Positions 8,251 through 27,081 of a stretch of DNA of 32,000 bases are shown one piece after another. The DNA lies in assembly GCF_002165375.2 (NCBI RefSeq), contig NZ_CP032134.1, positions 1,115,817 through 1,147,816 on the forward strand. The letters are read 5' to 3'. The DNA comes from Acinetobacter chinensis (GTDB lineage: Bacteria; Pseudomonadota; Gammaproteobacteria; Pseudomonadales; Moraxellaceae). Within the stretch, counting starts at the first letter, position 1; every line of letters starts with the position of its first letter. The notes beneath the pieces were generated by a model. The model was not told where the DNA came from and ran no database searches. It saw nothing but the letters and a program-made list of their open reading frames with translations. A program made the position numbers and the translations under genes.

Positions 8251-8808
8251 TTATTCGGCAGAGTCTTCAGCAGCATTTGCTTTTTCCGCCCAAAAGTCTG
8301 CTTTGTCTTCATCTACGTCGACACCTAAACCATGTTCATAGATTGCAACAAGATCACGCATGGCTTGCACTTCGCCTAACTCAGCAGACTGAATCACCAT
8401 TTGTACAGATTTCTCTATATCTTTTTCAACGACATCACCACGACGATAAAAACTGGAAAGCTCCAGAATAGCAGCAGGGTGGCGATGCTTAACTGCTTGC
8501 CCTAACCAACGATGTGCATGTTCAAACCAGACTTTGGCTTCTTCAGGGTCTTCTTCACGTAAGTCTTTTGCATAAGCATGATAGCCTTCACCAAGCCAGT
8601 ACATGGCTTCTACATGACCGAGTTGAGCTGCTTTCAGTGCCCATTCTTCTGCCAGCTGATTATCATCTTCGTCATCACTTTCCATGTAAATTTCAGCAAG
8701 TTCAAATTGAGCTGCTGGGTTTCCCATAGCTGCACGATTGAGAAGTTCAGCAGAAATGATGATTGAAGCCATAAAAAATCCACAAGATAATAAAAGGAAG
8801 ATCAGCAA
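8251..8808 (-). CDS. Sel1-repeat (TPR-like) protein with N-terminal membrane anchor or signal
   Basis: 185 aa ORF with a hydrophobic N-terminus, then repeated A-x-x-W/Y-x-x-A-A-x-x-G-H-x-x-A motifs (EEWALKAAQLGHVEAMYWLGEGY; QMVIQSAELGEVQAMRDLVAIYEHG) typical of Sel1 repeats. Confidence 0.7.
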   Translation of the reverse strand: MLIFLLLSCGFFMASIIISAELLNRAAMGNPAAQFELAEIYMESDDEDDNQLAEEWALKAAQLGHVEAMYWLGEGYHAYAKDLREEDPEEAKVWFEHAHRWLGQAVKHRHPAAILELSSFYRRGDVVEKDIEKSVQMVIQSAELGEVQAMRDLVAIYEHGLGVDVDEDKADFWAEKANAAEDSAE

Positions 8809-8928
8809 TGAAAAAATCAGTCCATGGACTGACCTTGAATGGTTGCTGATTATAGCCTGAATCCGGTCTGTATGGGATAGGACAGAATCGGATTCAGGAA
8901 TGCATCATGGCTAAAGTAACTTCTGCAT

Positions 8929-11646: not shown

Positions 11647-12063
11647 ATGAAAATAACAGCAAAGCAATGGATGTTGATGATCTCACTTGGACTGTATTCA
11701 GGTTTGAGTATGGCAGCAGTCTGTAACAGTCAGATTCAAAACAATGCAGTGGGGGGATTGAGTGTCCCTGCAAATGCGACCTGTATTATCAATGGTACTG
11801 CTGTCGATGGTAATGTGAATGTACAGAAAGGCGGTTCACTGGTACTGCATAATTCTTCGGTCAGTGGCAGTATTCAGGCTGATGCAGCAAAGTCGGTTCA
11901 ACTGATCAATTCTGCAGTTGAAGGCGATGTCAGAACAGCAGGTGTTACGGGTTTACTGAAAGTGGATAAATCGTCTGTTGAAGGAAAACTTTACTGTTCT
12001 TCTGCAACCAGGTTACAGGCAAATATGAGCAGTATTAATGGAACGGTCGGTAAGTGTAAATAA
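11647..12063 (+). CDS. Small secreted repeat (beta-helix-like) protein, unknown function
   Basis: 138 aa ORF with a GGAG-type Shine-Dalgarno and a signal peptide (…GLYSGLSMA/AV). It has roughly 18-20 aa periodic S-V-x-G-x-(V/I) repeats (AVDGNVNV, SVSGSIQA, AVEGDVRT, SVEGKLYC, SINGTVGK), with Cys near both ends. A terminator follows. Confidence 0.55.
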   Translation: MKITAKQWMLMISLGLYSGLSMAAVCNSQIQNNAVGGLSVPANATCIINGTAVDGNVNVQKGGSLVLHNSSVSGSIQADAAKSVQLINSAVEGDVRTAGVTGLLKVDKSSVEGKLYCSSATRLQANMSSINGTVGKCK

Positions 12064-12104
12064 CTGAAAAGATGTTTCGGTTTTCATATACAGATTTAAG
12101 AAAA

Positions 12105-12140
12105 TAAAAAAGCCTGATGCTTAATGCTCAGGCTTTTTTA
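12105..12140. terminator. Bidirectional rho-independent terminator
   Basis: aaaaaagcctga-tgcttaatgc-tcaggctttttta, flanked by an A-run and a T-run. It terminates the 138 aa gene. On the other strand it would originally have terminated the tRNA-Glu transcript. Confidence 0.7.
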
Positions 12141-12163
12141 TGAAAGATAAATACTTTCAGAAT

Positions 12164-12213
12164 ATGGCGTCCCTACGGGGATTCGAACCCCGGTTACCGC
12201 CGTGAAAGGGCGA
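12164..12213 (-). repeat. Prophage att direct repeat (displaced 3' 49 nt of tRNA-Glu plus 1 nt)
   Basis: 50 bp identical to 20456-20505. It covers the anticodon arm through the CCA end of tRNA-Glu. Identity stops at 12214, where gcatcc replaces tgtcct. Confidence 0.9.
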
Positions 12214-12252
12214 GCATCCAATTTATGAAAATAATTGTAAATATTTGTAAAG

Positions 12253-13077
12253 TTATACTAAGGAGGGTAAACATTTTAAAACTTCATGTAAATTCTCAGG
12301 TGCTAAATGTGCATAACGTTGAGTGATACGAGTATCAGAATGTCCCAATAATGTTGAAACATGATAAATGGGTACACCTTGTTTAACTAAAAAACTTGCA
12401 AATGTATGACGTAAATCATGAATTCGAAGCGGAGCCAAGTCAGCACGATCGGCTGAACACTGAAAGCCACGACGAAAACTCTTTATATGATGATTAGTCT
12501 TAGGATTATAAAAGACATATTTACGATGCAATTTAAGTCTAAGCAATGCATCAAATGAAGTATCATTGAGAGGTTTATAAATTGTCTTTTTATTCTTTGA
12601 CAATGAGTTCCTTATAATTATAAAGCGATCATTTAATGAAACATTATCCCATGTTAATGTGGTTAATTCAGAAGCACGACAACCAGTATTTAATGCTAAT
12701 AATATAAAATCATGTAAAACATAGTTATTATAACGCTTAGCAGATGATAATAATTTTTGACATTCAGTTGCATTTAGAAATTTAGGTATATAATCCTCTT
12801 CGAATAATTTAAACCCATTAAATACATTTTTAAAATTGACGTTTTTATGTTTTAAATAGTAATTGAAAGCAGACTTAATTACATTTAATTCTCTATTAAT
12901 AGTGCTGTTTTTAACACCGCATAATTTTCGATAAGCACAATAATCATTTACAATTTCAATTGTAATATCATCATACTCATAGAACCATTGAAGATGCATT
13001 ATTTTATCTGAATAGATATATTTAGAGTCAAAAAGACCATTTCGCACATAAAAATCTATAATTTCTTTAATATTCAT
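12253..13077 (-). CDS. int: Tyrosine recombinase / phage integrase
   Basis: Catalytic signature present: ALNTGCRASEL (Arg), RIHDLRHTFAS (H-x-x-R), LLGHSD (His), ITQRYAHL (Tyr). Track start 13089 is a GTG; the ATG at 13077 (MNIKEI) is preferred. It is adjacent to the att repeat. Confidence 0.85.
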   Translation of the reverse strand: MNIKEIIDFYVRNGLFDSKYIYSDKIMHLQWFYEYDDITIEIVNDYCAYRKLCGVKNSTINRELNVIKSAFNYYLKHKNVNFKNVFNGFKLFEEDYIPKFLNATECQKLLSSAKRYNNYVLHDFILLALNTGCRASELTTLTWDNVSLNDRFIIIRNSLSKNKKTIYKPLNDTSFDALLRLKLHRKYVFYNPKTNHHIKSFRRGFQCSADRADLAPLRIHDLRHTFASFLVKQGVPIYHVSTLLGHSDTRITQRYAHLAPENLHEVLKCLPSLV

Positions 13078-13155
13078 AAATACACACACCTAAATATAAT
13101 GGAAATTAAAATATATCAACTAATTAAAATAAGGCATTGAATTATATTGATTAAT

Positions 13156-13343
13156 GGGGCTTTGCCCCAAACCCCACCAAAGGGGGTGACCCCCTTTGGA
13201 AACCTCATATCTCTTCGCCAGAGTGGCAAGGGGGGATGTCACTTTGTGAACACCCCCCTTGAATTAGTGTGCTTTTCAATGTCTGCTGATCAATATGTTT
13301 TCAGATGAGCCGATGAGCTTAAGCTCACCGTTCAGTCTGAAAA
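13156..13343. other. Hairpin-rich intergenic region of the prophage (candidate packaging signal / replication origin)
   Basis: A GC-rich island in AT-rich DNA, containing:
- ggggc-ttt-gcccc (13156-13168).
- A perfect 11 bp-arm palindrome ccaaagggggt-g-accccctttgg (13177-13199).
- An imperfect hairpin aagggggg...cccccctt (13228-13260).
- A 46 nt hairpin (13298-13343) with outer stem ttttcaga/tctgaaaa around the 14 bp palindrome tgagcttaagctca (13314-13327). Confidence 0.5.
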
Positions 13344-13520
13344 ATATTGACAGTCAGATTTTGGAAAATATTTTTCAAATGTCTAAATTATTTTTAAAAG
13401 CTAAGACATATTTCTTAACGTAAATCAGATTAATTAACTATGACATATCAAAGATATGACATAGTTATTTACTAATTTTCTAAAATATGACTTATCTTTA
13501 AAATAATCATTAACTTAAGC

Positions 13521-13619
13521 TCAAGAAGTTTTTTGAAAGAGATCAATTAAGATTGAAAGAACCATGAGGAATAAGATAAAAGCCGTAATAATGATATAGC
13601 GATGTTCATTTAGATTCAT
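13521..13619 (-). CDS. Candidate 32 aa single-TM micro-protein translationally coupled to zot-like gene
   Basis: Own translation: MNLNEHRYIIITAFILFLMVLSILIDLFQKTS. Its ATG overlaps the Zot-like TGA stop (ATGA at 13619-13616). It is below the ORF-track size cutoff. Confidence 0.3.
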   Translation of the reverse strand: MNLNEHRYIIITAFILFLMVLSILIDLFQKTS

Positions 13620-15061
13620 ATTAAGCCTTGTTCTTTAGCGAGCTGATATTTAGCTAATTCTTCACGAGATAGTGAAACAGTAGAAATATTCTGATTAACA
13701 TTCTGTTGATTCATCGTATTGTTATTTTGAGTATTTAGATTCTGCTGTTTAAAGTAATCAAATGGACGATCACCAGAAGCAAAACGCATACAATCAGCAT
13801 CGGATATATCATACATTTGTGTCCCTTGCTGATTATAAGCATGGCATTTTCCATTGTAGATAATCGTAGCTGACAAACGAGGAAAATCAGTAGGGTTATA
13901 GTTTGCAGTGAAATTAGCGTCATAAGGCTTATTCGGATTATAGTCAAATACAACCTGTTGCATTGAATTGCCCGTCTGTTGTTGCAAAGCATTGTTTCTT
14001 TGTGCTGAATATGCAGGATCAAATGAGACACGACATTGTTCAGCTGTCATTTGTTTATCTTCGATACATTTTTCAACAATCATTTTTGTTTTAGTTTCTT
14101 CTGAATGGACAGAATAGCCCCCTGGAGACTGATCTTTTGAAGTTGCTGATATGGGTTCTTTTTCTCCAAAAATGCCCAGGGTATTTTTTTGTTTAGCATC
14201 GTAATAAGCATAACCCCAGAGTGCAAAAGGAATAGCTGCTACAGAAGCCAATCCGAGGGGAATACGTGCTTTTGTATGATGCTGTTCAGCTGAAATATAG
14301 TATTTATAAAGATTTTTTCTATATCTGAAAACACGCCATGACGTAGCATTTTTTCGATTTGATGAACCAAAATAAGTCTGGACTTCAGGATATTCAAAAA
14401 TAAAACAACATTGCCAGCCATACATGCGACGTAAAACAAGATGCAAAGAAGTTGCTGATTTGATAGCTGAGTTCACACGTTTAACATCCTGAGTGATCAT
14501 ATAGATATCGATACCAAAATGACCGTGAAGCGTTAATGATCTACCAATATCCAAAATAGCTTCTTTAGCTCTGATCAGTTTTCTTTTTTTCCAGACGTTG
14601 ACATGATCAATCAAGCTTTTCCGTATTTCTCTTGGAACTGATTTTTCATGCAAAATCTGAGATTTAAGTTTTGATTTAGAATCGTCATCAAAATCATTAT
14701 ATGAAAGATAATCAGTGAGTAATTGAAGTACATAATTATCAACAATTCCATTGCCGACTTTATTGATCAATGAATCATATTCTGAGACATCAACTGTCAT
14801 ATCTTTAAGAAGATCTTCATCAGAAAAAGCAGGATGCTCATGACATTCATCGTAAAAGAGAATAGAACCATTTGGCAAATCTCTCCAGTCAAAAGGTTTA
14901 TGTGTTGTCGACCTAATTGAAACAACACCAGGGTAATTCATACCGATGATGTTTGTAAAAATGATGCGATCAGGATATTTTTTTGAAAGCTGATCAATCA
15001 AATATACAGCGTATTGAGTTTTACCAGTACGTGGTGGTGCAGATATAAGAGTCTGTGTCAT
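13616..15061 (-). CDS. Zot-family assembly ATPase (inovirus pI-like)
   Basis: 481 aa ORF with an N-terminal Walker A (SAPPRTGKTQYAV), Walker-B-like ILFYDECHE, and a central TM helix (IPLGLASVAAIPFALWGYAYY). It has a Q/N-rich C-terminal domain. This architecture and position are typical of pI/Zot. Confidence 0.85.
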   Translation of the reverse strand: MTQTLISAPPRTGKTQYAVYLIDQLSKKYPDRIIFTNIIGMNYPGVVSIRSTTHKPFDWRDLPNGSILFYDECHEHPAFSDEDLLKDMTVDVSEYDSLINKVGNGIVDNYVLQLLTDYLSYNDFDDDSKSKLKSQILHEKSVPREIRKSLIDHVNVWKKRKLIRAKEAILDIGRSLTLHGHFGIDIYMITQDVKRVNSAIKSATSLHLVLRRMYGWQCCFIFEYPEVQTYFGSSNRKNATSWRVFRYRKNLYKYYISAEQHHTKARIPLGLASVAAIPFALWGYAYYDAKQKNTLGIFGEKEPISATSKDQSPGGYSVHSEETKTKMIVEKCIEDKQMTAEQCRVSFDPAYSAQRNNALQQQTGNSMQQVVFDYNPNKPYDANFTANYNPTDFPRLSATIIYNGKCHAYNQQGTQMYDISDADCMRFASGDRPFDYFKQQNLNTQNNNTMNQQNVNQNISTVSLSREELAKYQLAKEQGLI

Positions 15062-15069
15062 GTTTTTCT

Positions 15070-15135
15070 AGCCTGTTTCGCCAATGTCGTCGTTGTCGTC
15101 GCACCTCCTCCGCCTCCTCCGAAGCGAAACAGGCT
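15070..15135 (-). promoter_or_regulatory. Long-loop hairpin in the spacer between the pVI-like and pI/Zot-like genes
   Basis: 12 bp perfect inverted repeat agcctgtttcgc (15070-15081) / gcgaaacaggct (15124-15135). It encloses a 42 nt GC-rich loop which on the mRNA strand reads ggaggaggcggaggagg-tgcgacgacaacgacgac. It ends 8 nt upstream of the Zot-like ATG. Confidence 0.4.
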
Positions 15136-15139
15136 TGTT

Positions 15140-15415
15140 TTAACGCTTAACTAATCTGAGTTGTGCCATACCTACAGCCATCCCTGTTAATGAGCCAGAG
15201 AGCCAAAGAGAGAGCGCAGTAGGTATACCCATCATCCTAATGACCTGCAAAGCGTCCGGAGGTAATGATTGAAACTGTTCATTTATCGATTGAATGATTT
15301 TCTGTGTTAAAAAATCGACACCAGTGTATGAGATCAATGCAAGACCGAGACCTGCTAGAACCCAACCAACCAGGTTAAATGCAAAAAACTGTAAAACAGC
15401 GATTAATGCAGGCAT
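15140..15415 (-). CDS. Minor coat / assembly protein, pVI (Ace)-like
   Basis: 91 aa ORF with two hydrophobic helices. It lies between the pIII-like and pI-like genes, as gene VI does in Ff and ace does in CTXphi. Its start is 3 nt after the pIII-like stop. Confidence 0.55.
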   Translation of the reverse strand: MPALIAVLQFFAFNLVGWVLAGLGLALISYTGVDFLTQKIIQSINEQFQSLPPDALQVIRMMGIPTALSLWLSGSLTGMAVGMAQLRLVKR

Positions 15416-15417
15416 AT

Positions 15418-17007
15418 TTATTTCCCCGTAACGCCATAAGAAAGAAATTCACGAATTCCAAAGAAAGTACCGATGAAAATGAATACAAAATGAATTTGAA
15501 CAGCGAACTGACATATATATTTAAAAGTAAGAGTGATCGAACCTAACTTAGTTTGAACAACCCAAGGGGCAGGGCATTGTGCATTTGATGAACCGAATAA
15601 GCTGCCATCGAGCATATTTGATAAAGCACCAGCATCCTGTTCTTTAAAAACAGAATCGTTATCAGATTTGACTTTCCCATCACTCTGAAGCCATTCCATA
15701 TATTTCTTATCGAATTCAGCCTGGTCATCCATTTTTTTATTAATGTCGTTTAAAGCCTTGTGATATTCACCACGACACTCACCAGGAGCAAACAAGTCTG
15801 AAAGATTGTCATCAGTAAAATCAGTTTCTTTACAACGATTAAGTGATGTGCCTGAACCGTCACCATTGCCTGTACCATTCCCACCAGATCCAGAACCGGC
15901 TGCAGTATTATTTTTAATTGAAGTCAATAAATCAGAAATGGCATTCAATGAGTCATTAATACGAGCTGTATCAGAACTAATCTCTGAAAGTCTGTTATTT
16001 GAAGTCGTCATTTTTGAATCAATAGATTCAGTTGATTTATTGATATCTTTTAAATTTTCATTTGAAACATCAATCTTCCTGCTAATAGTATTCAAAGTTG
16101 TATTCAATTCAGAACGAGCATGGTTAACAGCTGAAGTAACTTGATTGATTGCAGAAATAACGCCTTTTAAATCGACGCCACCGCCACCAGTCGGGGGATT
16201 GCCGCCAGTAGGTTCAGAAGCACCGCCACCAGTCGGGGGATTGTCACCACCACCGTCACCACCTCCAGTCTCAGGTTCAGAAGCACCGCCACCTGTTTCT
16301 GGTGGAGGGGATGATTTAATACAAATCTCCTCACCATTCCAGTTTCCAGAAACATAGCCAGGACCACAGCCTTGTGGAGGTCTTTTGCAGTATGTAGCAC
16401 CATTACTACAACCCTGTTTTATCGGAGGCACTTCATCATCTGGACAAAGAATTGAGCCATCATGCTGACGAGTACAATTGTCATCAGGAGGGGTATAACA
16501 GCCACCATACGGATCTTTCGGATCACATGGAGGATTCAAAAGCTCTTCTTTACAGTTAGGATCAGGTGTTTTTGAAACCGAACTGAAGGTAGACGTTATA
16601 TAGCCGTTAATTACAGGAGCATTTGCAACATTACCAGTATATTTACAAAGCACTCCATTATTCGGAACACAAATCGTTTTTTTAATTTTTGTGTTCACAG
16701 ACTGTTGAACAACTTTGTAGTCTGGATGCCAACACTCTGCCGGTGCTAATTTTCTATAAATGTAGTAACCATTCATCACGTAATTACCGCTATTCTTAGT
16801 CTGACAATAACCATAATGATCTGGACCAGAATTAGGATAAAAAACTGAATATTTCGTTGAAGCATTATTAGCAGAAATAAGTAGATCACAAACGCCACTT
16901 GGTGACCTTGCTTCAAGATGAGAGTAATAATAAATATATTCTTCAGCATAAGAATTAACTGAAAAAATGCTGAATATTACGAAAATTAAATATCTGAAAA
17001 ATCTCAT
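15418..17007 (-). CDS. Receptor-binding minor coat protein, pIII-like
   Basis: 529 aa ORF with a signal peptide (…FSVNSYA/EE), a Cys-rich N-terminal region, a Gly-rich linker (PETGGGASEPETGGGDGGGDNPPTGGGASEPTGGNPPTGGGG), a middle domain, a second Gly/Ser linker (AAGSGSGGNGTGNGDGSGTS), and a hydrophobic C-terminal anchor (FVFIFIGTFFGI). This domain plan is as in Ff g3p. Confidence 0.7.
   Translation of the reverse strand: MRFFRYLIFVIFSIFSVNSYAEEYIYYYSHLEARSPSGVCDLLISANNASTKYSVFYPNSGPDHYGYCQTKNSGNYVMNGYYIYRKLAPAECWHPDYKVVQQSVNTKIKKTICVPNNGVLCKYTGNVANAPVINGYITSTFSSVSKTPDPNCKEELLNPPCDPKDPYGGCYTPPDDNCTRQHDGSILCPDDEVPPIKQGCSNGATYCKRPPQGCGPGYVSGNWNGEEICIKSSPPPETGGGASEPETGGGDGGGDNPPTGGGASEPTGGNPPTGGGGVDLKGVISAINQVTSAVNHARSELNTTLNTISRKIDVSNENLKDINKSTESIDSKMTTSNNRLSEISSDTARINDSLNAISDLLTSIKNNTAAGSGSGGNGTGNGDGSGTSLNRCKETDFTDDNLSDLFAPGECRGEYHKALNDINKKMDDQAEFDKKYMEWLQSDGKVKSDNDSVFKEQDAGALSNMLDGSLFGSSNAQCPAPWVVQTKLGSITLTFKYICQFAVQIHFVFIFIGTFFGIREFLSYGVTGK
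16179..16293. repeat. Short direct DNA repeats encoding the Gly-rich pIII linker
   Basis: caccgccaccagtcgggggattg occurs at 16179-16201 and 16221-16243. ggttcagaagcaccgccacc occurs at 16211-16230 and 16274-16293. Confidence 0.85.
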
Positions 17008-17108
17008 TAAAATACTCCAGATATTTAATCTAAAAACATTTTGTAAAAACTGAGAGCAAGAACCACATAAATGATCAAATTTATTAAATCCATGCTCTCA
17101 GCTCCCGA

Positions 17109-17315
17109 TTAACCTTTTTTAAACAGACGAATCACCAGACCGATACACATCAAAAAGACGACAGCACCGATCACGATTAATGAACCCTGATCCATTAAAC
17201 CCTCAGCACCTGCATCAGCATAAGCAGTAGTTAAATCAGCTGGAGTCAAAGCAAAAGCAGACTGTGTGAAAAGTGAAGCACTTCCAAGTGCTGTAATTGC
17301 AGTGATTTTTTTCAT
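17109..17315 (-). CDS. Major coat protein, pVIII-like
   Basis: 68 aa ORF with a signal peptide ending AFA. The mature ~46 aa form has an acidic N-terminus (D, D, E, D), a hydrophobic core (LIVIGAVVFLMCIGLVI) and a basic C-terminus (RLFKKG). Confidence 0.75.
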   Translation of the reverse strand: MKKITAITALGSASLFTQSAFALTPADLTTAYADAGAEGLMDQGSLIVIGAVVFLMCIGLVIRLFKKG

Positions 17316-17335
17316 GGTTTTACCCCTTAGTTAAG

Positions 17336-17512
17336 TTATGCGCCCAAAAATAAATGTTTGAGCATTTTTACAATGAACACCGTGATAAAACAGCAGATCG
17401 TGAAATACAGCAGTGAATCACGGATATCACCAGTGAAGGTCGGCAATAATTCATATTCAAAACATCTGACAACTGTGTCAGCATTCTGTTGAATCGTTTC
17501 GCAGACTTTCAT
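17336..17512 (-). CDS. Candidate 58 aa small protein (pVII/pIX-position)
   Basis: Own translation: MKVCETIQQNADTVVRCFEYELLPTFTGDIRDSLLYFTICCFITVFIVKMLKHLFLGA. A GGGGGA Shine-Dalgarno precedes it. It lies directly upstream of the major coat gene. Confidence 0.4.
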   Translation of the reverse strand: MKVCETIQQNADTVVRCFEYELLPTFTGDIRDSLLYFTICCFITVFIVKMLKHLFLGA

Positions 17513-17621
17513 TTTTCCCCCTTCTGAACTTTGTCAGAACAGTGAAGAAACTTTTAATATCAAAAAAGATGAAACGACCCAGACCGTATATAAAAAAGAT
17601 AAGTACAAAGTAGTAGGTCAT
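17478..17621 (-). CDS. Candidate 47 aa hydrophobic micro-protein (pVII/pIX-position)
   Basis: Own translation: MTYYFVLIFFIYGLGRFIFFDIKSFFTVLTKFRRGKNESLRNDSTEC. It overlaps the start of the next small ORF. Confidence 0.3.
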   Translation of the reverse strand: MTYYFVLIFFIYGLGRFIFFDIKSFFTVLTKFRRGKNESLRNDSTEC

Positions 17622-17654
17622 GAGATTATTATCCCTATAAATAGCCTAAGCAAA

Positions 17655-17957
17655 TCAAGCAGGTTTTGGAGATGCAGATTTTTGTGGCAAAAGGTCAAGC
17701 AAAATAAGTGCTGAAGTTTTACCGTTCGATACCTGCTCCATAGTCACATCAGCTACCAATGGGAAATCGAGTGATTTGATTTTTTCAAAATTTGCAGACG
17801 TACCCCATTTAATTTGTTCGCCAACTTCACCTACGAAGTTGTCACCAGCCTGTAAATCAGCCTTGTAAAAGATGACAGTCGAGTCATAAGGGCGACCCTG
17901 AAACTCACCTTTTGATGATTTAGCCCCAAGTACAACCATTGTTGATTTAAATTGCAT
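17655..17957 (-). CDS. Putative ssDNA-binding protein (pV / RstB position)
   Basis: 100 aa ORF that overlaps the Rep stop by 11 nt. The call is positional only, from its place immediately after the replication gene, plus its small, beta-rich-looking sequence. Confidence 0.4.
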   Translation of the reverse strand: MQFKSTMVVLGAKSSKGEFQGRPYDSTVIFYKADLQAGDNFVGEVGEQIKWGTSANFEKIKSLDFPLVADVTMEQVSNGKTSALILLDLLPQKSASPKPA

Positions 17958-19431
17958 GAGTTAATCCCTCATAGAAGTTATGTTTAGACGTAAGAAAAGG
18001 CACACCCTCAAATAAAGGTGTCTCATTAATGGTTTTGTTTCGAATAGGTTCACCGATACGCAAAGCTTGCATAACAGCAGAATGTGAAAAAACAAGGCGT
18101 TTAGGAACAACGTCCTTATCAGATGAAATAAGATTTAATAAATCTTCATCATTAATAAATTTACGAAATTGACGAATGTATTTACCGAATTGATGCTTAA
18201 GAACATCTAAAGCTTTATCTACATTGATAGTCGCTTGTTTTTCGATAAGCTCACATTTTTCAGGTACAACAAAATCATTTAGTTGATTTGCAAGAATCTC
18301 AAGCGCAGGGTAAGCACCTTTAAAATAAGTGCTCGGAGACAAAAGAATATCAAGTGGCAAATACCGATCAGTTGACTTAAGCTCCAGCTCTGCACGTGTC
18401 CAGAGACTAAGAGAATCCCCTTCCTTTTTGCCACGTTCATAAAAACGTAAGAATTTTGAACTTGAACGATTACCGACAGTTAAAGTACGCCCTTTACCAT
18501 TAATACGTTTCCAATCACCTAGACAATTTATCTCAGGATTACAGCCACCACACCAGAAAAGGTTCTGAGAATCCCATTCATAGGCAAGATCAACAGAGAC
18601 CCATTCGCTATCAAAGTCATCAAATGCAATATCAACCCTGTTAAGCTTCGGAGATACAGCCTGTACAGTTAGAAATTTATAAAGCTGTTCATTCCAACCT
18701 TTACGAGCTAAAGCACAGCCAGTACCGTTAATTTGAACAGTTACACGTTTATTGTTATGACCATAAAGCACAATGCCGAGGTTATCTTGCAAGTCATATC
18801 CAAATTTATTCCAGTGCATTCCTTTTTCACGTTTCTGTGAAATGCCAAAGCCAAAAATTTCAAAAAGAAGCTGATCAAGCCAAGTCTCAATAGCATCACC
18901 AACAGATTCATTAACCTGCTCTGGAGTAAGCATTACGTATTTATCACCGAATGTACTCTGACAAAAACTGAAGGTAATCCAATCTAAACCACAAATAGAG
19001 TTATCAATTGGAACAGCACGCAGAACAGGTAAAACACCTTGTGGCGTAGAAATCAGTTTGTAATTATCTAAGTTCCGAGGAAAAGCCCATGAATCAGATG
19101 CTTTTTGCGTATCCGCTACCCCTATATTATAAAAAGGGGAGCTTTCTGCCGTCTTTTGTGCAGGTATGGCTATTTTTTGTACAAATATTTCTGCAATGGA
19201 TTGATCATCTTTTTTCTTCGGTTTAACCAACGTGTTTTCAAAAGCACAAAGCTTGTTACGTGTAATGCCATCAAGCATGTTTCTTAAAATCTGAGAATCC
19301 GCAAGTGTGAGATCGCCAAATGCAGCACGAGCATAAAGCTCATGAGAAATTTCTTTTTCTTGATCAAATATTTCAGCGAGCGATAAGGATGCTGAATCAA
19401 AAGCTTGAATTTGAGAAAGGATTGTATTCAT
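17947..19431 (-). CDS. Rolling-circle replication initiator (pII / RstA-like, Rep_trans-type)
   Basis: 494 aa ORF. The segments VSPKLNRVDIAFDDFD, TLTVGNRSSSKFLRFYERGKKEG and RAELELK resemble the replication initiation factor family of CTXphi RstA, from memory. It is the first large gene of the leftward operon. Confidence 0.7.
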   Translation of the reverse strand: MNTILSQIQAFDSASLSLAEIFDQEKEISHELYARAAFGDLTLADSQILRNMLDGITRNKLCAFENTLVKPKKKDDQSIAEIFVQKIAIPAQKTAESSPFYNIGVADTQKASDSWAFPRNLDNYKLISTPQGVLPVLRAVPIDNSICGLDWITFSFCQSTFGDKYVMLTPEQVNESVGDAIETWLDQLLFEIFGFGISQKREKGMHWNKFGYDLQDNLGIVLYGHNNKRVTVQINGTGCALARKGWNEQLYKFLTVQAVSPKLNRVDIAFDDFDSEWVSVDLAYEWDSQNLFWCGGCNPEINCLGDWKRINGKGRTLTVGNRSSSKFLRFYERGKKEGDSLSLWTRAELELKSTDRYLPLDILLSPSTYFKGAYPALEILANQLNDFVVPEKCELIEKQATINVDKALDVLKHQFGKYIRQFRKFINDEDLLNLISSDKDVVPKRLVFSHSAVMQALRIGEPIRNKTINETPLFEGVPFLTSKHNFYEGLTHAI

Positions 19432-19515
19432 TCAAACCCCCATACCAAATAAGTAGCCCGAGATAAAACCAAGAACAACGCCAAGACCATAGGAAACGTA
19501 ATTAAAATCAGACAT
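19432..19515 (-). CDS. Candidate 27 aa TM micro-protein coupled between the 83 aa ORF and rep
   Basis: Own translation: MSDFNYVSYGLGVVLGFISGYLFGMGV. Its ATG overlaps the upstream TAA (TAATG), and its TGA abuts the rep ATG (TGAATG). Confidence 0.3.
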   Translation of the reverse strand: MSDFNYVSYGLGVVLGFISGYLFGMGV

Positions 19516-19766
19516 TAATCTTCCCCAAAAGCTTCAATAAGTTCTGAATTGGTTGCCTTAGTAATATGGTAATAAGCCTCAATTTTTGAAGCATCGTAGG
19601 ACCAATCTTGAGCAACTGTAGAAAGATGAGAAAGGCACTTCTCAGTAGAAATCGCAGGGGTTAATGCTTCAAAGCAAGGTTGAGCATGATCAGAGATAAT
19701 CTTAGCGACCTGATCAAAAGCAGCCTGAATAAATTCAGATTTAGTTTTAAAACTCAGATCAGCCAT
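19515..19766 (-). CDS. Hypothetical acidic 83 aa protein, first ORF of the leftward phage operon
   Basis: ORF with an AAGGGG Shine-Dalgarno. I recognise no family. Confidence 0.5.
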   Translation of the reverse strand: MADLSFKTKSEFIQAAFDQVAKIISDHAQPCFEALTPAISTEKCLSHLSTVAQDWSYDASKIEAYYHITKATNSELIEAFGED

Positions 19767-19807
19767 AAAAGCCCCTTGTATATTTTTTGACTAAAATCAA
19801 TTAGATT

Positions 19808-19835
19808 GACTTAACAGGTTACAGCCTGTTAAGTC
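19808..19835. promoter_or_regulatory. Perfect 11 bp-arm inverted repeat upstream of the leftward phage operon
   Basis: gacttaacagg-ttacag-cctgttaagtc, lying 42-69 nt upstream of the ATG at 19766. Confidence 0.4.
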
Positions 19836-20130
19836 ATTCAAATGTCATAGTGAGTGGAGATGAATATGACACCCGAAGTTTTAAATGAAGTAGCTACAAA
19901 TTCTTTTCTAAGTTTCTTAACTAAAAATTGGTTATTAATATTGATAGGAATGATCGTATTAATCATAAAAGTCAGAATGAAATAATCAGACCAATGAACC
20001 AAAATAAAACCAGATTAAGAAAACCGTAATTACCCCAAAAACATAACCCTGTATTGCATATGAATATTTACTATTAAAAATCTTAGAAATTATTTTTAGC
20101 ATGCAGGGATATCCTATTTTTTTTAACAAA

Positions 20131-20210
20131 CTTCGCAAAAATGCGAAGATGGAAGCAAAAAAAATCTTTACAATTATGCGAAGTGAATATACTTCGCATA
20201 ATTGCGAAAA
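20131..20210. promoter_or_regulatory. Operator-like TGCGAAG/CTTCGCA palindromes over the regulator promoter
   Basis: Inverted repeat 1 is cttcgca-aaaa-tgcgaag (20131-20148). Inverted repeat 2 is attatgcgaagt-gaatat-acttcgcataat (20173-20202, 12 bp arms). There is an extra half-site, aattgcgaa, just after. TTTACA (20167-20172) and TATACT (20188-20193) overlap inverted repeat 2. Confidence 0.45.
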
Positions 20211-20225
20211 ATCAAGAGGTGAAAA

Positions 20226-20513
20226 ATGCTGAACGAACTTATTGAGAAGTGCAAGGAACGATTTGGGAGTTACGAAAAATTAGCATGGGAATTAGAATTA
20301 ACCCCATCAGTTGTTTCAGATTGGCGAGCAAAAAGAAGAAAACCCAACACAATTCAAGTCATGCAAATGGCTGAATTTGTTGGGTTTGATCAGTACCAAA
20401 CACTCTGCTTAGTGATGGAAGAAATCGACATCAAGAATGCAGAGCTTTGGAGAAAATGGCGTCCCTACGGGGATTCGAACCCCGGTTACCGCCGTGAAAG
20501 GGCGATGTCCTAG
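20226..20513 (+). CDS. Phage HTH transcriptional regulator (repressor candidate); 3' end crosses the att core into tRNA-Glu
   Basis: 95 aa ORF with an AGAGG Shine-Dalgarno. It has an HTH-like segment (YEKLAWELELTPSVVSDWRAKRRKP). It is divergent from the structural operon, as rstR is in CTXphi. The last 19 codons (WRPYGDSNPGYRRERAMS-stop) are the antisense of tRNA-Glu. Confidence 0.6.
   Translation: MLNELIEKCKERFGSYEKLAWELELTPSVVSDWRAKRRKPNTIQVMQMAEFVGFDQYQTLCLVMEEIDIKNAELWRKWRPYGDSNPGYRRERAMS
20456..20505 (-). repeat. Prophage att direct repeat (forms the 3' part of the intact tRNA-Glu)
   Basis: Identical to 12164-12213. Confidence 0.9.
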
Positions 20514-20532
20514 GCCTCTAGACGATAGGGAC
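20457..20532 (-). tRNA. tRNA-Glu (UUC), copy 1 (prophage-occupied)
   Basis: The minus strand reads GTCCCTATCGTCTAGAGGCCTAGGACATCGCCCTTTCACGGCGGTAACCGGGGTTCGAATCCCCGTAGGGACGCCA. Acceptor stem GTCCCTA/TAGGGAC, anticodon loop CTTTCAC, T-loop TTCGAAT, encoded CCA. It is close to E. coli tRNA-Glu. Confidence 0.95.
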
Positions 20533-20563: not shown

Positions 20564-20639
20564 TGGCGTCCCTACGGGGATTCGAACCCCGGTTACCGCC
20601 GTGAAAGGGCGATGTCCTAGGCCTCTAGACGATAGGGAC
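20564..20639 (-). tRNA. tRNA-Glu (UUC), copy 2 (tandem with copy 1, 31 nt spacer)
   Basis: 76 nt identical to copy 1. Confidence 0.95.
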
Positions 20640-22414: not shown

Positions 22415-22490
22415 TGGCGTCCCTACGGGGATTCGAACCCCGGTTACCGCCGTGAAAGGGCGATGTCCTAGGCCTCTAGACGATAGGGAC
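22415..22490 (-). tRNA. tRNA-Glu (UUC), copy 3
   Basis: 76 nt identical to copy 1. Confidence 0.95.
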
Positions 22491-27005: not shown

Positions 27006-27081
27006 TGGCGTCCCTACGGGGATTCGAACCCCGGTTACCGCCGTGAAAGGGCGATGTCCTAGGCCTCTAGACGATAGGGAC
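27006..27081 (-). tRNA. tRNA-Glu (UUC), copy 4
   Basis: 76 nt identical to copy 1. Confidence 0.95.

Follow-up and report, generated by a model that had tools for sequence, protein, structure and literature searches.

A probable temperate inovirus of Acinetobacter chinensis that carries a tyrosine integrase and occupies a tRNA-Glu gene

Introduction

Is the block of about 8.3 kb that interrupts a run of tRNA-Glu genes in Acinetobacter chinensis a complete filamentous phage, and how did it enter the chromosome? The block lies in a stretch of 32,000 nucleotides (contig NZ_CP032134.1, positions 1,115,817 to 1,147,816 of the forward strand), here called the window and numbered from its first letter. 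An initial annotation, made from the letters and their open reading frames (ORFs), had read the block as a filamentous prophage. Inovirus prophages with attachment (att) sites in tRNA genes or beside an integrase gene are common, and 582 of them have been found in isolate genomes (PMC6813254). We conclude that the block is very probably an intact temperate inovirus of A. chinensis, an 8,292-bp circle integrated by its own tyrosine integrase. We also find that its attP (the phage attachment site) lies inside the ORF of a putative repressor, and that its integration and replication cassettes are found in other combinations among Acinetobacter inoviruses.

Results

The element is a precise insertion in the distal gene of a tRNA-Glu pair

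The block is bracketed by two identical 50-bp direct repeats (12164-12213 and 20456-20505) that are spaced 8,292 bp apart. This spacing is the length of the inserted DNA, because the span of 12164-20505 (8,342 bp) given in the initial annotation counts both copies of the repeat. The 50-bp core corresponds to positions 28-76 of tRNA-Glu, the final 49 nt (anticodon stem through CCA), with one further nucleotide downstream. ARAGORN predicts a tandem pair of tRNA-Glu genes at this site, and the repeat matches the 3' half of the distal one, so both the perfect repeats and the insertion site proposed initially are borne out. The distal tRNA-Glu gene remains intact, since its 3' half is restored by the phage-borne core, and its sequence is the same as in strains in which the site is empty.

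An empty bacterial attachment site (attB) that is perfect to the base is present in four other A. chinensis assemblies (CP032143.1, CP127923.1, JAYSBE010000226.1 and JASVDY010000001.1). In these strains the distal tRNA-Glu gene is directly followed by ATTCTGAAAGTATT, which is the reverse complement of window positions 12150-12163. The match to the base in four assemblies indicates that the block is a precise, strain-variable insertion of 8,292 bp. The event of insertion, the exact ends of the block and the common att core are established. The initial annotation had proposed a search for the empty site in related strains, where it is now found base for base; the outcome that it had named as arguing against a phage, a block fixed with identical junctions in all relatives, is not what the four conspecific assemblies show. 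The flanking amino-acid permease gene is also present in other A. chinensis assemblies. The G+C content is 31-40% inside the block and about 37-49% in the adjacent flanks, and records of each phage protein come from one chromosome, plus Logan re-assemblies.

Four tRNA-Glu(UUC) genes are predicted by ARAGORN on the minus strand within 7 kb, the tandem pair and two others at 22415-22490 and 27006-27081, and they are interspersed with two amino-acid permease genes and a gene for a TonB-type receptor. All four share the identical 49-nt core; the window therefore offers at least four equivalent attB sites, one of which is occupied.

A tyrosine integrase adjoins the attachment core

The tRNA-derived repeat is explained by the finding that the element encodes its own tyrosine integrase (Int; Table 1). 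A motif search located the catalytic residues R134, H220-x-x-R223 and H246, and Y255 was read from the sequence (TQRYAHL). The end of the gene lies 39 bp away from the core, NCBI annotates the product as a site-specific integrase (AXY56191.1), and its 90% identity cluster has 52 members. The initial annotation overlooked this gene, together with a plus-strand helix-turn-helix (HTH) regulator and a 32-codon ORF with a transmembrane segment at the stop codon of Zot. What it called a hairpin-rich intergenic region is indeed hairpin-rich at 13090-13520, while the remainder of that stretch also holds the 274-residue integrase.

The catalytic residues and the position of the gene beside the att site argue that Int catalysed the integration. 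Int would have recombined attP, where the phage carries 50 bp matching the tRNA-Glu 3' half, with the distal member of the tandem pair; one end would thereby have regained a complete tRNA gene, and the displaced 3' fragment would have been left beside int. A search of ten ORFs of the element against Pfam and PHROGs found no transposase.

Table 1. Positions in the window, strands and supporting matches of the element's features (aa, amino acids; E-values follow family names)
Feature	Position	Strand	Evidence or remark
Left att junction	12164..12213	-	displaced tRNA-Glu 3'-half copy (49 nt + 1 nt), adjoins int
Tyrosine integrase, 274 aa from ATG	12253..13077	-	ORF reaches GTG at 13089; PF00589 9.5e-30; phrog_1 2.3e-53
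Hairpin-rich Zot-int spacer	13090..13520	-	G+C-rich stem-loops in A+T-rich DNA
p32, 32-aa micro-ORF with a single transmembrane segment	13521..13619	-	overlaps Zot stop (ATGA); hydrophobic 5-32; unannotated
Zot/pI-like assembly ATPase, 481 aa	13616..15061	-	PF05707 3e-11; phrog_197 1.6e-49
pVI-like minor coat protein, DUF2523, 91 aa	15140..15415	-	PF10734 3.6e-14; phrog_1242 1.2e-17; N-terminal transmembrane segments
pIII-like adsorption protein, 529 aa	15418..17007	-	phrog_17788 3.9e-94
Major coat protein precursor, 68 aa	17109..17315	-	phrog_7106 3e-4; phrog_1646 1.5e-3; PF19199 0.083 (sub-cut-off)
p58 and p47, overlapping hydrophobic micro-ORFs	p58 17336-17512; p47 17478-17621	-	positional analogues of pVII/pIX
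Candidate single-stranded DNA-binding protein (SSB), 100 aa (pV/RstB analogue)	17655..17957	-	directly after Rep; phrog_4994 2.5e-33
Rep, rolling-circle initiator, 494 aa (Rep_trans/RstA-type)	17947..19431	-	PF02486 1.3e-19; phrog_453 2.6e-89
p27, 27-aa hydrophobic micro-ORF between p83 and Rep (doubtful)	19432..19515	-	good Shine-Dalgarno sequence, tight junctions
p83, first conserved gene of the forward operon	19515..19766	-	phrog_20873 3e-36
Variable phage-specific region	19767..20116	-	tight hairpin 19800-19843; no DNA match in any relative
Operator-like palindromes	O3 20131-20148; O2 ~20166-20184 (degenerate); O1 20193-20208	.	CTTCGCA-N4/5-TGCGAAG
HTH (Cro/CI-like) regulator, 95 aa when integrated	20226..20513	+	phrog_638 1.6e-12; divergent from main operon
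Right att junction	20456..20505	-	50-bp core within intact distal tRNA-Glu
Distal tRNA-Glu(UUC), intact, occupied attB	20457..20532	-	ARAGORN; Rfam tRNA 58.2 bits
Proximal tRNA-Glu(UUC), unoccupied, identical core	20564..20639	-	ARAGORN

The structural and assembly genes are those of an inovirus

The minus-strand ORFs listed initially all exist with the lengths given there (83, 27, 494, 100, 47/58, 68, 529, 91 and 481 codons). As had also been claimed, none of the frames is disrupted, and most are preceded by Shine-Dalgarno sequences. The junctions cited as overlapping or abutting are real, namely TAATG at p83/p27 (1-nt overlap), TGAATG at p27/Rep (abutting) and ATGA at Zot/p32 (4-nt overlap); in addition, Rep and SSB overlap by 11 nt, and pIII and pVI are separated by 2 nt. 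The statement that nearly all junctions are of this kind went too far, as gaps of 20-101 nt separate the others. Profile matches or sequence features were found for Zot/pI, the coat protein, Rep, the pIII-like protein and the pVI-like protein, which together place the element among the inoviruses.

The two profile comparisons suggested initially both gave scores above the cut-offs, 43.6 bits (cut-off 20.3) for Zot against PF05707 and 71.1 bits (cut-off 29.6) for Rep against Rep_trans PF02486. The Walker A motif attributed to Zot is present (APPRTGKT, residue 8), and a Walker B-like motif (ILFYDE) follows at residue 67. The transmembrane helix attributed to the same protein is plausible and unconfirmed, as the hydrophobic segment at about 268-286 falls below the Kyte-Doolittle cut-off of 1.6 (about 1.55, estimated by hand). 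A small ORF that is hydrophobic by eye also lies at the Zot stop in the related loci L012, L013 and L015, and an 89-residue ORF is found there in L029 (labels beginning with L denote related contigs and loci); p32 is probably a coding gene.

The 68-residue coat precursor has the features described for it, a signal peptide ending in AFA, an acidic mature N-terminus, a hydrophobic core (transmembrane segment 39-68) and a basic RLFKKG tail, and its matches to PHROGs are weak. The upstream ORFs p58 and p47 both contain transmembrane-like segments; p58 matches phrog_13391 (8.6e-9) and is annotated in RefSeq (WP_160116986.1), whereas p47 is doubtful because it is unannotated and has a weak ribosome-binding site.

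The pIII-like protein has a signal-like N-terminus, a Cys-rich N-domain (14 Cys in the first 235 residues), a coiled-coil-like middle and a C-terminal transmembrane anchor (497-519), and the two Gly linkers assigned to it correspond to Gly/Pro-rich segments at 232-277 and 366-388. Its match to the TspB C-terminal domain (20.1 bits) is under the 24-bit NCBIfam cut-off, and its nearest homologues are up to 55% identical over the N-terminal 44% of the protein. A comparison with PDB sequences returned just coiled-coil noise from the haemagglutinin subunit HA2. The coding sequence of the N-terminal Cys-rich domain (16740-16315) is the only part of the gene with DNA relatives, 73% identical to IMG/VR contigs L010 and L011, which suggests domain-level exchange of the presumptive receptor-binding part of pIII. 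The databases differ on this gene, as the GenBank protein has 225 residues (AXY56194.1) and the RefSeq protein 529 (WP_160116984.1).

As stated initially, no pIV-type secretin is encoded: searches of Pfam, PHROGs and NCBIfam with the ten largest ORFs of the phage matched no secretin family, and the remaining ORFs are too small. Because the phage encodes no secretin, it would need one from the host, through which Zot/pI would assemble and extrude the virions.

The replication genes have close relatives in other Acinetobacter species

Rep is 74-78% identical to its counterparts in four other Acinetobacter species and up to 79% identical to those on IMG/VR contigs, while the closest Rep of a deposited phage is only about 35% identical. 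The 100-residue protein encoded directly after Rep matched no sequence family of known function in profile searches. We found that its AlphaFold2 model (predicted local distance difference test score, pLDDT, of 88.1; 47 homologues aligned) is an all-beta barrel of the oligonucleotide-binding (OB) fold with one short helix. The top PDB neighbours of the model are almost all OB-folds of SSB, RPA or PriB, with weak scores (E of about 1e-2, TM-score of about 0.5). The best BFVD neighbour has an E-value of 2.8e-5 and a TM-score of 0.74, and an 'RstB-like protein' is at rank 6. A single-stranded DNA-binding function is therefore plausible for the modelled protein, whose family also occurs in A. baumannii genomes.

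The p83 family is restricted to Acinetobacter and comprises 86 clusters, all hypothetical. The AlphaFold2 model of p83 is a confident three-helix bundle (pLDDT 94.6); we considered p83 as an excisionase or a Cro protein and rejected both, since the model has no significant PDB neighbour (best E = 1.4). The micro-ORF p27 is unannotated and gave no tblastn match in any relative, and it is doubtful as a gene.

Related phages carry the same core and share cassettes with different partners

In at least three other species, A. corruptisaponis, A. guerrae and Acinetobacter sp. Axc73, prophages of about 8.55 kb lie between two copies of the 50-bp core, and the core borders relatives in other species at differing places in the chromosome. 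The proteins of these three prophages are 74-78% (Rep), 67-70% (Int), 69-83% (SSB) and 47-83% (HTH) identical to those of the window phage. However, their Zot proteins are just about 28-30% identical, and no match was found for the coat, pIII and pVI proteins, indicating that the structural module has been exchanged.

Two contigs from independent Logan runs, L031 (SRR27946741) and L033 (SRR17405913), show the order Zot, small ORF, int, one core, HTH, p82 and Rep. This junction is the attP of a sister phage, from a circle or a tandem array. The Int of the sister phage is 87% identical to that of the window phage, Rep 39% and Zot 27-39% (partial Zot), and the reconstructed attP of the window phage is colinear across the junction over 778 bp at 76% identity. 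On the JGI metagenome contig L028 this sister phage occurs as a prophage, flanked by two cores that are spaced by 7,004 bp. Positions 1-22 of L031 (AGATGTGTATAAGAGACAG), which we take to be a Nextera transposase adapter, are contamination at the end of the contig, and the attP junction at 1776-1825 is unaffected.

About 26 IMG/VR contigs carry a related Rep. The IMG/VR contigs L036 (6,947 bp) and L039 (7,450 bp) have terminal direct repeats of 123 and 127 nt and are therefore probably complete circles. Their p83-Rep-SSB genes are 72-84% identical to those of the window phage, and they carry no integrase, HTH gene or tRNA core, so the replication cassette also occurs in inoviruses without an integrase. 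We rejected the A. rongchengensis contig L014 (NZ_RAXT01000087.1, 7,191 bp; Rep 75% and Zot 38% identical) as a circular or integrase-bearing relative, as its ends do not overlap and it lacks both int and the HTH gene. In A. qingfengensis, two different copies of a distant relative (L016 and L017; Rep 50-54% identical) both lie near contig ends and are possibly two prophages in one strain. A 3,421-bp Logan contig from run ERR7015395 (L027), apparently an unrelated second sequencing run, is 100% identical to window positions 15878-19298, from Rep into pIII.

On a DNA map of these relatives, the core-HTH-operator block and the int block are common to one set of phages, and p83-Rep-SSB is common to another. 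The region 13119-17670 is essentially unique at the DNA level, except for the pIII N-domain. The results show that the window phage is a mosaic: its int-attP-HTH and p83-Rep-SSB cassettes are each combined with other modules in other inoviruses of Acinetobacter, and its coat-pIII-pVI-Zot module is nearly unique to it. A megablast search of the whole element against deposited phages returned a tRNA match only.

Other candidates for a circular form were set aside. The 8,301-bp Logan contig from the strain's own run ends in the core on both sides and overlaps itself by 9 nt, which is an assembly broken at a repeat, and the 30 nt shared by the two ends of L029 leave the same ambiguity. An exact lookup of the 95- and 130-residue regulator forms of the window phage was uninformative, as neither form has ever been called as a gene.

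Three operator-like palindromes separate the regulator from the main operon

The operator-like palindromes occupy the space that separates the forward operon from the divergent HTH gene, and four matches to their pattern were found against 0.34 expected (none of 100 shuffles reached this count). Three operators occupy the same positions in five phages, the window phage and four relatives (L012, L013, L031 and L028). The central base of the half-site covaries between the two arms, as TTCGCA/TGCGAA in the window phage, TTCCCA/TGGGAA in L012 (at about 8775-8860) and TTCACA/TGTGAA in L031. Such covariation is the pattern expected if the operators co-evolve with the repressor, and it suggests that phages with one family of cassette differ in immunity type. 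O1 overlaps a sigma-70-like promoter (20215..20186, minus strand); individual sites apart, promoter and terminator scans showed no enrichment over shuffles. Judged from this layout, the most economical model is that the HTH protein represses the Rep/structural operon: it would bind the three operators over the forward-operon promoter and keep the operon off.

The Zot-int spacer, folded as single-stranded DNA, reaches -81.7 kcal/mol, compared to -37.4 kcal/mol for shuffles (z = -9.7). Its inverted repeats include 13227-13261 and 13177-13199, and it is not conserved in the relatives; it is a candidate packaging signal or complementary-strand origin. The variable and operator region (19767-20225) also folds strongly (z = -6.7). 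The tight hairpin in the variable region was rejected as the origin for Rep, as it is not conserved among phages with the same Rep. An Rfam scan of the element returned tRNAs only.

The attachment site lies within the regulator ORF

The last 19-20 or so of the 95 codons of the HTH ORF traverse the att core in antisense, and its stop codon lies in the tRNA anticodon arm. Read across the reconstructed attP, the regulator would have 130 residues. Because attP lies inside its ORF, integration shortens the regulator from 130 to 95 residues. On the attP contigs L031 and L033 gene callers predict the 130-residue form, and the difference between 130 and 95 residues is found in all seven loci examined (4-5 lineages), despite regulator identities of only 47-83%. 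The 35-residue extension is antisense over the int 3' end (window 12214-12326); across attP the two ORFs, int and HTH, converge, with an overlap of 74 nt in the circle. In seven of seven loci the frame in which the ORF enters the core is retained, and the extension frame is open for at least 36 codons, with no stop in 105 nt, and the other two frames contain 3-8 stops (shuffle P = 0.02-0.04 per locus).

In the mycobacteriophage BPs, attP lies in the 3' end of the repressor gene and integration shortens the repressor from 136 to 103 residues, which is the defining layout of integration-dependent immunity (PMC3694055, PMC4557955). The window phage resembles BPs, Brujita and Charlie in having attP in the repressor ORF, a compact arrangement of int, repressor and divergent first gene, and no recognised xis. 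In contrast to the BPs type, its int and regulator are convergent and no ssrA-like tag is present, and it belongs to another virus realm and infects another host phylum. This likeness is one of layout.

If the int-attP-HTH cassette acted as an integration-dependent switch, the episomal phage would make the 130-residue regulator, whose hydrophobic 35-residue tail might leave it unstable, inactive or differently oligomerised; integration would then replace the tail by three tRNA-encoded residues, giving a 95-residue form that maintains repression. Several observations weigh against a switch. For two-thirds of its length (74 of 105 nt), the extension lies antisense to the conserved 3' end of int. 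None of the viral-form C-termini (...NVE, ...NAG, ...NVV, ...PRN and ...SKN) carries an ssrA-like tag, though another degron on the 130-residue form is conceivable. In addition, int is convergent with the regulator and not co-transcribed with it. A divergent first gene, as in the BPs type, is present in p83, which has no assigned function. We know of no report of such a switch in inoviruses, no search having been aimed at one. We offer the switch as a speculation, by analogy, that is unlikely to be correct.

A host gene at the int-side junction

The host gene at 11647-12063 (+), next to the int-side junction, encodes a secreted-looking protein of 138 residues with no Pfam match on record, and it is conserved at the empty sites. 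A Thr_leader match at 12056-12142 is sub-threshold (E = 0.019) and is probably merely the terminator of this gene.

Discussion

The gene content suggests how the phage would multiply. Once derepressed, the operon would be expressed in the order p83, Rep, SSB, small hydrophobic proteins, coat, pIII-like, pVI-like, Zot/pI and small transmembrane protein. By homology with Ff, CTXphi and Pf phages, the Rep_trans protein would nick the double-stranded form and drive rolling-circle synthesis, and the OB-fold protein would coat the single strand. Packaging into filaments and extrusion without lysis are likewise predictions, and the copy in the window is likely to be active.

Several points weigh against an intact, active phage. 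No match to an excisionase or Xis family was found among the ten ORFs searched in Pfam, PHROGs and NCBIfam. No attP junction or circular contig was found for the window phage, and its exact attP string is absent from IMG/VR and the JGI metagenomes. The coat and SSB assignments rest on weak profile or fold scores, and folding, inverted repeats and conservation led to no assignment of a replication origin or packaging signal. Taken together with the missing secretin gene, the lack of a circular form or attP in the collections searched and of a recognised excisionase would fit a cryptic prophage, recent and intact-looking, that can no longer excise or make virions for want of an excisionase or a compatible secretin and persists as chromosomal cargo. 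We regard this as quite improbable, as all genes are intact, the att repeats are perfect, the absence from four conspecific genomes points to recent acquisition, and attP junctions were found for the sister phage, which carries this integration cassette too. Moreover, Xis is not obligatory for every integrase, and many active inoviruses without a secretin, such as CTXphi and the Neisseria MDA phage, borrow that of the host. Integration-dependent switches, too, function without Xis (PMC3694055).

The remaining explanations concern the route of entry and the nature of the element. Integration by host XerCD at a dif-like site, or by a transposase, with the tRNA repeat being incidental, would agree with the published A. 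baumannii Af phages, which carry IS110-type transposases or presumably use XerCD (PMC11209303), and with the existence of relatives that have the Rep module but no int (L014, L036 and L039). It is nevertheless very hard to reconcile with a complete tyrosine integrase beside the att site, boundaries that are an exact 50-bp repeat of the tRNA 3' half, the same core around relatives in other species at different loci, and the ten ORFs that yielded no transposase; we give it next to no weight. The idea of a non-viral element that integrates, for instance an integrative plasmid or small genomic island with Zot-like and Rep genes, is in our view just as improbable. Several small ORFs do have no assigned function and virions have not been seen, but the gene set is the full one of an inovirus in canonical order (coat, pIII-like, pVI-like and pI-like), the genome size and the coding on one strand are typical, and related genomes occur as circular viral contigs of 6.8-7.3 kb. 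An intact temperate inovirus integrated by its own tyrosine integrase thus remains by far the most probable reading.

Among known phages, the closest parallel in lifestyle is with the Pf phages, which encode their own tyrosine integrase and have as attP a 27-46-bp 3' fragment of a tRNA or tmRNA gene; their repressor gene lies at one end and int at the other, and their structural and integration modules are reassorted (PMC7549136). The window phage shares with Pf4/Pf-tRNA-Gly and Pf6/Pf-tRNA-Met the temperate layout, an integrase of its own, a tRNA-derived attP, a regulator and int placed at the ends, and module reassortment. In contrast to Pf phages, it targets tRNA-Glu, has a 50-bp core, a Rep of the Rep_trans/RstA type and a smaller genome (8.3 kb), and no XisF-like excisionase was recognised in it. 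The only sequence match to the group is a 72-residue N-terminal P-loop segment of Zot to Pf3, and Pf phages are found neither among the 25 Rep matches listed nor in the tally of organism names. Judged by its genes, the window phage appears to work like Pf phages while being unrelated to them in sequence.

The A. baumannii phages Af1, Af4, AfK and M02 infect the same genus and have Zot, DUF2523, a TspB-related adsorption protein and coat in the same order. The Af phages (groups A-J) are reported to integrate with an IS110 DEDD transposase or presumably through XerCD, and a CoaB/Zot similarity below 50% has served as the ICTV-based genus boundary (PMC11209303). The best match of the window phage's Zot in the phage collection, to M02, is at 32%, which is under the genus threshold; this test rests on the deposited phage collection, with Af1 sequences not compared directly and the coat not searched alone. 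Searches of deposited phages with pIII and with the whole element matched no Acinetobacter phage gene. The route of integration also differs, as Af phages are reported to use IS110, or presumably XerCD with tandem copies flanked by Rep and regulator, whereas the window phage is a single copy with its own integrase, a tRNA att site and no transposase. Neither an integrase nor a tRNA site is mentioned in the two papers on Acinetobacter filamentous phages (PMC11209303, PMC12285184). A full-text literature search combining tRNA-Glu, Acinetobacter and Inoviridae found nothing. The lineage is catalogued in IMG/VR and hence not wholly undescribed, and it is not described in the literature searched.

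With CTXphi and RS1 the window phage shares an RstA-type Rep followed by a small putative SSB (RstB analogue), a putative divergent repressor (RstR analogue), Zot as pI and the lack of a secretin, and tblastn with Rep matches many Vibrio phage and Affertcholeramvirus (CTXphi-group) records. CTXphi integrates as single-stranded DNA through host XerCD at dif (as cited in PMC11209303); the window phage differs from it in having its own integrase, a tRNA target and no toxin cargo. The Neisseria phages MDA and Nf are alike in a distantly related TspB-type adsorption protein (by the sub-cut-off domain match) and in having no phage secretin. The integration of Neisseria filamentous phages, however, relies on a PivNM/Irg transposase (PMC11209303 and work cited there).

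With this element, a genus whose filamentous phages have been characterised only from 2024 gains a temperate inovirus that has well-defined ends and appears to be intact. The element also indicates that Acinetobacter inoviruses also use the tyrosine-integrase/tRNA route and that their integration, replication and structural cassettes reassort freely. It provides exact att sites, a candidate repressor-operator set and empty-site control strains, which could be used for tests of induction, host-secretin dependence and lysogenic conversion in A. chinensis. If the attP-in-regulator layout is functional, integration-dependent immunity would extend beyond actinobacteriophages, and the logic of BPs would operate, with a convergent int, in a single-stranded DNA inovirus of a Gram-negative host.

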